Made by a program: the position numbers and the translations under genes
In this document: in pieces, positions 32,748 through 33,938 of the stretch
How positions within the stretch are numbered: position 1 is the stretch's first letter
Layout: each line of letters opens with the position of its first letter
Notes under the pieces: generated by a model
The model's input: only the letters and a program-made list of their open reading frames with translations
Told to the model about the DNA's origin: nothing
The model's database searches: none
Origin: Gammaproteobacteria bacterium
GTDB taxonomy: Bacteria > Pseudomonadota > Gammaproteobacteria > Francisellales > CACEW01
Direction: 5' to 3'
Length of the DNA stretch: 64,000 bases
Assembly: GCA_029240715.1 (NCBI GenBank)
Contig: JARDZR010000006.1
Coordinates: 1,104 to 65,103 of the forward strand

Positions 32748-33938
32748 ATGTTTACTTCTTTCCTTACAGACCATGCAGTAAAAGCCATTGCATTGCTGCC
32801 GATTGATCAAGCTCATTATAGCGCTTGGCTAAAACAACAAGATGCTCTGACCCAGCAGTGGCTTGCAACGGTCAGCTTCAATGCTGAACCTGGCCAAATT
32901 TGTTGCATACCTGATGCTACAGGCCATATTAAGCAGGTATTAGTAGGGGTCAATCCACAAAATAGCTTGTGGAGTTTAGCCGATTGCCCTAAACAGTTGC
33001 CGGCCGGCTCCTATGAGTTACAAGATCAATTTGCTTTGCTTTGTGCAGAACAAGCCGCTTTAGGCTGGGGCTTGGCTTCTTATCGATTTGACCGCTATAG
33101 CAGCAACAAACAAACTTCCTATCGCCAACTCATAATAGACTCTGCATTGTTGAAAAAAGTCACAGCAGTTTTAGAAGCCTGTTATTGGGTGAGAAATTTA
33201 ATTAATACTCCTGCTGAAGACATGGGGCCGGAACATTTATCTTCCCAAGCCCGTAATCTCGCTGAACGCTATCAGGCCCAGTTTACTGAGATAGTTGGAA
33301 AAGATTTGCTTAATCAGGGCTATGCCGGCATTTATACAGTGGGCCGAGCTGCAGTCCAAGCCCCTCGATTGATTGATATACACTGGGGAAAAAGTTCTGA
33401 CCCTAAAATAACTTTAGTGGGTAAAGGGGTGTGTTTTGACAGCGGCGGCCTTAATTTAAAGCCGGCAGATAATATGCTTTTAATGCGAAAAGATATGGGT
33501 TTGGCAGATGCTCTAAGCGAAGCTTCGCAAGATCATCCTGAGCTTTTGATCGATTTTGCCACCTTAACTGGAGCGGCCAGAATGGCGCTTGGAACTTCCT
33601 TGCCTGCTTTATTTTCCAATCGGGATGAATTGGCTTTTGAAATAGCTAAGCTTTCTAAAGCGGAAAACGATCCCATGTGGCCAATGCCATTATTTGCTCC
33701 CTACAAGCGTTTAATTAAAGGAAAATTTGCTGATTTAACCAACAATCCTGGAACAGGAATGGGAGGGGCAATCACTGCGGCCTTGTTTTTAGAATGCTTT
33801 GTAGATGAAAATATCCCTTGGCTGCATATTGATCTGATGGCTTGGAATGATTCAAACCAGCCTGGGCGCCCTGAAGGAGGAGAAGCAATGGGAATGAGGG
33901 CCTTGTTTGCATACCTGGCTAAGCGTTATATTGCGTAG
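32748..33938 (+). CDS. M17 leucyl-aminopeptidase-family protein with an internal in-frame gap removing the NTDAEGR catalytic core (probable pseudo-enzyme or pseudogene)
   Basis: Motifs N.[29 protein letters not shown], then directly LADAL....P.[21 protein letters not shown] and HIDLMAW. The roughly 60-65 residues that separate DM.GAA from EGRL.LADAL in E. coli PepA, including NTDAEGR, are absent. Confidence 0.8.
   Translation: [396 protein letters not shown]

Follow-up and report, generated by a model that had tools for sequence, protein, structure and literature searches.

Why does a gene that sits directly in front of two glutathione-synthesis genes encode a metallopeptidase without the centre of its active site? 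The question is raised by an open reading frame (ORF) of the M17 peptidase family in a 64,000-nucleotide (nt) stretch of a contig labelled Gammaproteobacteria bacterium (JARDZR010000006.1, positions 1,104 to 65,103 of the forward strand; "the window" below means this whole stretch). The ORF ends immediately before gshA and gshB and has lost 63 residues in frame, including the NTDAEGR core of the family. We consider it probable that the ORF is a very young null allele, or incipient pseudogene, of an M17 aminopeptidase that forms the first gene of an M17-gshA-gshB unit. The features on which this reading turns, numbered within the window, are the following.

32748-33938, forward strand: M17-family peptidase ORF with in-frame deletion, 396 amino acids (aa), from the ORF list, Pfam and a 100% match to the database protein P0001

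33423-33494, forward strand: the kept half of the active site, K226 (33423-33425), D231 (33438-33440), K238 (33459-33461) and D249 (33492-33494), in columns invariant among 120 aligned sequences

33498-33500 / 33501-33503, forward strand: deletion junction, GGT (G251) / TTG (L252), from a codon alignment with the homologous loci L001, L002, L005 and L007 of relatives and from protein alignments

A database protein search showed that the window protein is identical to P0001 (NCBI MDF2690378.1), which is annotated as a normal "leucyl aminopeptidase" and whose cluster is a singleton, derived from a single contig of 65,599 bp from a metagenome-assembled genome (MAG). Pfam placed the N-terminal domain PF21337 (Peptidase_M17_N_1) on residues 16-122 (E = 3.5e-30) and matched the catalytic domain PF00883 with 223.5 bits against a cut-off of 25 (E = 5e-66); the latter match is split in two, the second stretch starting from residue 252 at profile position 173 of 310. 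Every M17 chain found in a PDB search also matches the window protein in two pieces. The best of them, the Coxiella burnetii "cytosol aminopeptidase" 3ij3 (E = 8e-108), aligned over chain residues 28-283 and 338-481, and the matches to E. coli PepA (1gyt) and bovine lens leucine aminopeptidase (LAP; 1lam) resume at chain residues 358 and 338, respectively, both at query residue 251. At the DNA level, the codon alignment shows that 189 nt are gone between ...GAT ATG GGT and TTG GCA GAT.... No stop codon or frameshift lies inside the ORF, which terminates with TAG at 33936-33938, leaving a spacer of 1 nt before the ATG of gshA at 33940.

To define what was removed, the window protein was aligned with its 10 nearest homologues and, separately, with 119 homologues. 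In both alignments, the loss appears as a single, exact 63-column gap, unique to the window protein among the 120 sequences and spanning G-A-A-H...E-x-G-N-T-D-A-E-G-R-x-x; in the sister protein P0002, the missing text reads GAAHVLGLAKLIMQANLPVCLRVLIPAVENAVSKDSYRPGDIITSKNGKTIEVGNTDAEGRVV. The T, D, A, E, G and R of NTDAEGR are invariant in the 119 homologues, and the N is nearly so; the NTDAEGR(L) signature, typical of active M17 enzymes, is absent from the window ORF. With residue numbers carried over from the PDB match offsets and the established description of the M17 site, the deletion is equivalent to residues 276-338 of bovine LAP and 296-358 of E. coli PepA. The metal-ligand set is incomplete, since two of the five ligands (Asp332 and Glu334 in bovine numbering) were lost with the segment, together with the catalytic Arg336. 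The four kept residues, K226, D231, K238 and D249, correspond to bovine LAP K250, D255, K262 and D273, of which K250, D255 and D273 are ligands and K262 is catalytic. Chance is not an issue for this deletion, because it is a discrete structural difference and not a statistical signal.

These results uphold a preliminary description of the sequence, which had placed a precise in-frame loss of about 63 residues at the same two codons, had noted that NTDAEGR with two metal ligands and the catalytic Arg was absent, and had located the gene 1 nt before gshA-gshB; the multiple alignment that it proposed confirmed the gap, with the segment lacking from none of the 119 homologues. The missing 63 residues are not encoded elsewhere in the window, where tblastn returned chance matches only (E of at least 0.5) and detected no second M17 gene. 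A weak match of P0002 at 46456-46650 (E = 0.034), considered as a displaced segment or part of a split gene, was dismissed, as it lies inside a RecJ-like gene.

The consequences for the fold were evaluated with AlphaFold2, run with the family alignment on the window protein and on the intact sister P0002. The sister model had a mean predicted local distance difference test score (pLDDT) of 93.8 and no segment below 50, whereas that of the window protein had a mean of 87.4 and fell below 50 at residues 230-246 and 326-332. The first of these regions contains the remaining ligand D231 and the catalytic K238, and strand 227-231 is no longer predicted in the window protein. In the sister model, the deleted part comprises the last 14 residues of helix 240-265, strand 271-281 (11 residues), a hairpin of two short strands (293-295 and 301-303), the NTDAEGR loop and the opening turn of helix 310-324. 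The model of the window protein thus fits a polypeptide that lacks part of its core and would be unable to form the binuclear site.

The remainder of the gene looks undecayed. Outside the gap, 104 of the 107 positions conserved in at least 90% of the family are kept, in line with the earlier statement that the reading frame and the downstream blocks are preserved. The intact homologues deviate at a mean of 2.6 of those positions (range 0-9), and the three deviations in the window protein, C80, N150 and R247, each also occur in 3-5 of the 119 other sequences. Tajima relative-rate tests with L002 as the sister and L001, L005 or L007 as the outgroup gave window-specific versus sister-specific counts of 24/42, 21/39 and 20/39 (p = 0.027, 0.020 and 0.013), indicating slower, not faster, evolution of the window gene relative to its intact sister. 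The dN/dS ratio that the preliminary description had suggested calculating was 0.075 between window and sister by the NG86 method, with dS saturated at about 2.5, and most other pairs were not computable. Because these rate figures cover the whole branch since the sister split, they say almost nothing on the period after the deletion.

The age of the lesion is better approached through neutral decay. In this ORF, 4.6% of the transition-weighted single-base changes create stops, and beyond 1.4-3.2% neutral divergence the probability that an unconstrained ORF is still open would drop below 0.05, a bound that rests on an assumed indel-to-substitution ratio of 0.05-0.2. None of the signs of a decaying pseudogene (frameshifts, stops, faster substitution) was found. 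Taken together, the sequence comparisons show that the gene has not spent any appreciable time under relaxed evolution. The deletion is either very recent or not real, because the rest of the gene is undecayed, and a pseudogene, if the ORF is one, would have only just begun to form.

The genomic setting identifies what the intact gene belongs to. Three neighbours matter here.

31370-32686, forward strand: TolC-like outer-membrane efflux protein, the upstream neighbour; the syntenic genes in L001, L002, L005, L007 and L149 carry PF02321 (OEP)

33940-35544, forward strand: intact gshA (glutamate-cysteine ligase), PF04262, E = 1.6e-152, profile positions 10-372 of 372

35613-36554, forward strand: intact gshB (glutathione synthetase), PF02951 and PF02955

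Both glutathione genes align with those of the relatives without gaps, over 522 columns for gshA and 312 for gshB. On the contigs of the five closest proteins, the genes follow a common order, namely an msbA-like ATP-binding cassette (ABC) transporter, coaX, the tolC-like OEP gene, M17, gshA, gshB, rmuC and rdgC, with ankyrin genes intervening between coaX and the tolC-like gene in some of them, and the window has the same order. The M17 gene is intact (459-463 aa) on all five contigs. The neighbouring proteins of the window are 68-89% identical to those of the sister locus L002 and all align over their full length; the TolC-like neighbour, conserved in position, shows 76-85% tblastn identity to the syntenic genes of the relatives. 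The distance from the M17 stop to the gshA start, +1 nt in the window, is -23 nt in L001, -11 in L002, -20 in L005, +12 in L007, -11 in L149 and -11 in L150. The complete M17-gshA-gshB series is found in the window and in L001, L002, L005, L007 and L149, and M17-gshA without an adjoining gshB in L150; L149 and L150 are more distant, with 55% and 51% identity over the aligned columns.

Outside this clade, the linkage disappears. Among 148 loci, gshA or gshB lies nearby in eight, all of them in the close clade; the linkage was not found in the remaining approximately 140 more distant loci from other Proteobacteria, and gshA linkage is likewise missing in the Coxiellaceae locus L151 (homologue P0077). 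Because synteny and tight spacing are conserved across the clade loci, M17-gshA(-gshB) is an ancestral, translationally coupled arrangement of the clade and not a chance adjacency. The linkage supports an operon for Cys-Gly recycling plus glutathione synthesis, at which the preliminary description had hinted from the window alone and which gains substance from the tight M17-gshA(-gshB) spacing in six further lineages whose M17 gene is intact. A literature search returned no description of an M17-gshA operon in Legionella-like bacteria and no relevant M17 pseudo-enzymes.

Such an operon would have a biochemical rationale. LAPs of family M17 hydrolyse Cys-Gly in a metal-dependent manner and have seven canonical residues for catalysis or metal binding (PMC9659335). 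In Francisella, which is intracellular and cysteine-auxotrophic, PepA, PepB and PepN are thought to split Cys-Gly derived from host glutathione, and the released cysteine and glycine can be re-used for glutathione synthesis by GshA and GshB (PMC10831187). By analogy, the intact enzyme of the present clade of uncultured gammaproteobacteria, which is probably host-associated, would be a Mn/Zn-dependent Cys-Gly and general N-terminal peptidase, releasing the Cys and Gly that feed the GshA and GshB encoded directly downstream. In the sampled lineage, a single 189-nt deletion would have removed 63 residues and left a product that, judging from sequence and model, is unable to assemble the binuclear metal site and is probably misfolded. 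Peptidase activity is presumably lost, because the binuclear site could not form and the fold is probably wrong. Since the number of lost nucleotides is divisible by three, ribosomes would still read through the ORF and stop 1 nt short of the gshA start codon, so that expression of gshA-gshB would escape polarity. This escape may explain why an in-frame lesion, and not a frameshift, is seen.

Could the protein instead represent a naturally short M17 subfamily that lacks the segment and binds metal through other ligands? The intact reading frame is all that speaks for this, and at the available sampling the alignments refute it, so that we hold it to be extremely improbable. The segment is carried by all 119 of the closest homologues, including the five syntenic relatives (69-73% identical to the window protein over the aligned columns), and these homologues are all at least 442 aa long (442-474 aa for those listed); because none of them shares the gap, absence of the segment is not a natural trait of the subfamily. 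When 1.84 billion cluster representatives were searched with phmmer and the best 150 examined, only two of these 150 matched in a single stretch, the query itself and P0123. The latter (390 aa, L152:368-1540 on JGI contig Ga0136217_1005995) belongs to the same subfamily at 47% identity and has a large in-frame loss of its catalytic core, which keeps DAEGR and removes the equivalents of K262 and D273; its contig is 2.2 kb long and has no gshA beside the gene. Because its junction differs, P0123 is an independent sporadic event and no evidence for a short subfamily. A related alternative is that the truncated protein is a retained pseudo-enzyme, selected for a non-catalytic role, for example as a scaffold or regulator with GshA/GshB, or in PepA-like Xer recombination or carAB repression. 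The DNA-related functions of E. coli PepA are a known precedent for a peptidase-independent role. The open ORF, the conserved positions kept outside the gap in a gene that evolves more slowly than its intact sister, and the preserved tight coupling to gshA would all be expected of such a protein. We nevertheless regard it as improbable. The deletion is shared by none of the 119 close homologues, and the same junction was not found in any same-species or sister contig in searches of the protein index, GTDB and JGI or by phmmer; P0123, with its different junction and no gshA nearby, does not supply a second case. Conservation persists at the ligands K226, D231 and D249 and at the catalytic K238, as expected of a very young lesion and not of a protein released from catalytic duty, and the deletion removes a long β-strand of the sister's predicted fold, with a collapse of local model confidence. 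Moreover, the N-terminal domain is PF21337 and not PF02789, which we take to be the N-terminal domain of canonical PepA enzymes such as that of E. coli, and the rate data, spanning the whole branch since the sister split (dS > 2.5), contain little on the post-deletion period. Between the two possibilities offered in the preliminary description, a recent deletion was therefore strengthened, by the kept positions, the intact ORF and the lack of rate acceleration, and a retained pseudo-enzyme gained no positive support, the allele being a singleton.

A rival of more weight, although one that we still consider rather unlikely, is that the organism carries an intact gene of about 459 aa and that the gap arose from assembly, polishing or strain mixture, or represents a minor population variant. 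One MAG contig is the sole source of this singleton allele, no other contig of the species was found in the gene-position index, the 185,579 GTDB species genomes or the JGI metagenomes, and the full absence of secondary decay is equally expected of an artefact. The exact-protein index likewise yielded no second assembly of the species, the closest contig in the GTDB and JGI scans being that of a relative with 57% identity (full alignment, gap counted). The breakpoints point the other way. In the genes of the relatives, the segment is not flanked by direct repeats spaced 189 nt apart, and in-register microhomology at the breakpoint is 1-3 nt at most ("TGG" in L002), a pattern that fits illegitimate recombination or replication slippage as the possible origin of the deletion. 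Because there is no repeat, a de Bruijn assembler would have nothing to collapse, and the k-mers across the junction should come from real reads. An 11-nt near-repeat, GAAAAGATTTG (33298-33308) and GAAAAGATATG (33487-33497), does lie exactly 189 nt apart in the window; we judged it coincidental, because both copies are upstream of the breakpoint, the second ending 3 nt before the junction. The neighbouring genes are all full length against the relatives, an artefact would have a one-in-three chance of being exactly in frame, and P0123 illustrates that in-frame core-deletion alleles are occasionally deposited, although that case is no firmer than the present one. Several observations weigh against a young null allele in a glutathione operon. 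The sequence with the deletion comes from just one MAG contig. That the rest of the gene evolves slowly would be expected just as well if the truncated protein were still under selection. AlphaFold confidence does not gauge stability, and, taken as a whole, the window-protein model remains confident. Scans of the window for promoter and terminator consensus sequences produced no more matches than expected from shuffled sequence and are uninformative on operon boundaries, and our literature search found no test of Cys-Gly function for the PF21337-type subfamily.

A bolder version of these ideas would hold that the gene is a stably kept non-catalytic M17 derivative, acting with or controlling GshA/GshB or translated in order to drive gshA, in a host-associated bacterium that is past its need for Cys-Gly hydrolysis; on a wider view, the conserved M17-gshA-gshB unit would be an undescribed glutathione-salvage operon of an uncultured lineage with many eukaryote-like repeat proteins, and this MAG its natural knockout. 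We would give this little credence.

Compared with known systems, the window protein resembles the PF21337-bearing "leucyl aminopeptidase family protein" group of Coxiella 3ij3 in combining PF21337 with PF00883 and in keeping every conserved block outside the gap, and differs from 3ij3 in having none of the approximately 54 residues (chain 284-337) that lie between the matched pieces of that chain. The gshA linkage, in turn, separates the window clade from the Coxiellaceae homologue P0077. The protein shares the catalytic-domain fold family of bovine LAP and E. coli PepA and PepB, with which its four active-site residues align; unlike canonical M17 enzymes, it has a different N-terminal domain and lacks the catalytic Arg, two metal ligands and the NTDAEGR signature of the PROSITE type. 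The NCBIfam equivalog models for PepA and PepB all scored below their cut-offs, and because the intact sister does not reach them either, function cannot be assigned more finely in this loosely characterised subfamily. As an allele, it is an ordinary kind of event, like the in-frame deletion null alleles found in bacterial genomes and MAGs, with a single lesion, a syntenic orthologue, singleton status and no secondary decay. Unlike the typical case, its ORF is open and annotated as a normal enzyme, and it heads an operon with intact downstream genes.

Other genes of the window bear on the lifestyle of the organism. The ORF at 53890-55191 (reverse strand) gave a full-length Pfam match to MATCAP (PF08014, the microtubule-associated tyrosine carboxypeptidase family; E = 4.8e-126), a eukaryote-like domain; the ORF at 60716-61606 (forward strand) encodes an ankyrin-repeat protein of 296 aa; and the 781-aa ORF at 997-3342 (reverse strand) has a weak ARM-repeat match (plant U-box ARM). 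Ankyrin genes also adjoin the M17 cluster in the relatives L002 and L007. These ankyrin, ARM-like and MATCAP-like genes, with the ankyrin genes of the relatives, suggest a host-associated, Legionellales-like lifestyle.

Several further features were recorded in the window. The gene at 25285-26745 (forward strand) encodes a fused methionine-type ABC transporter protein of 486 aa, combining a permease (BPD_transp_1) and an NlpA/MetQ lipoprotein domain. It is preceded by an ATPase with a NIL domain (24261-25301), and the same fusion is present in L005 and L006. Three consecutive ORFs of 341, 511 and 537 aa at 40852-45259 and a 358-aa ORF at 47197-48273, all on the forward strand, match no Pfam family at E ≤ 1e-5; the GC content is 0.474 in 42001-44000, against about 0.42 elsewhere in the window. 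A XerC/XerD-type tyrosine recombinase gene (Phage_integrase with a SAM-like N-terminal domain) lies at 56609-57502 (forward strand), about 2 kb from a tRNA-Gln gene at 59526-59600 (forward strand).

By itself, the finding matters little, since it concerns a single defective copy of a well-known enzyme in one MAG. It does provide a clean example of an in-frame deletion that removes an active site and is missed by pseudogene filters based on length or frameshifts, and metabolic reconstructions of this MAG should not count the M17 gene of the window as an active peptidase. The translational coupling of an M17 gene to gshA(-gshB) occurs in at least seven lineages, and no description of it was found in the searchable literature. 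It constitutes genomic-context evidence for a role of PF21337-type M17 enzymes in Cys-Gly recycling and glutathione re-synthesis, a possible contribution to cysteine salvage in host-associated bacteria that may now be put to the test.

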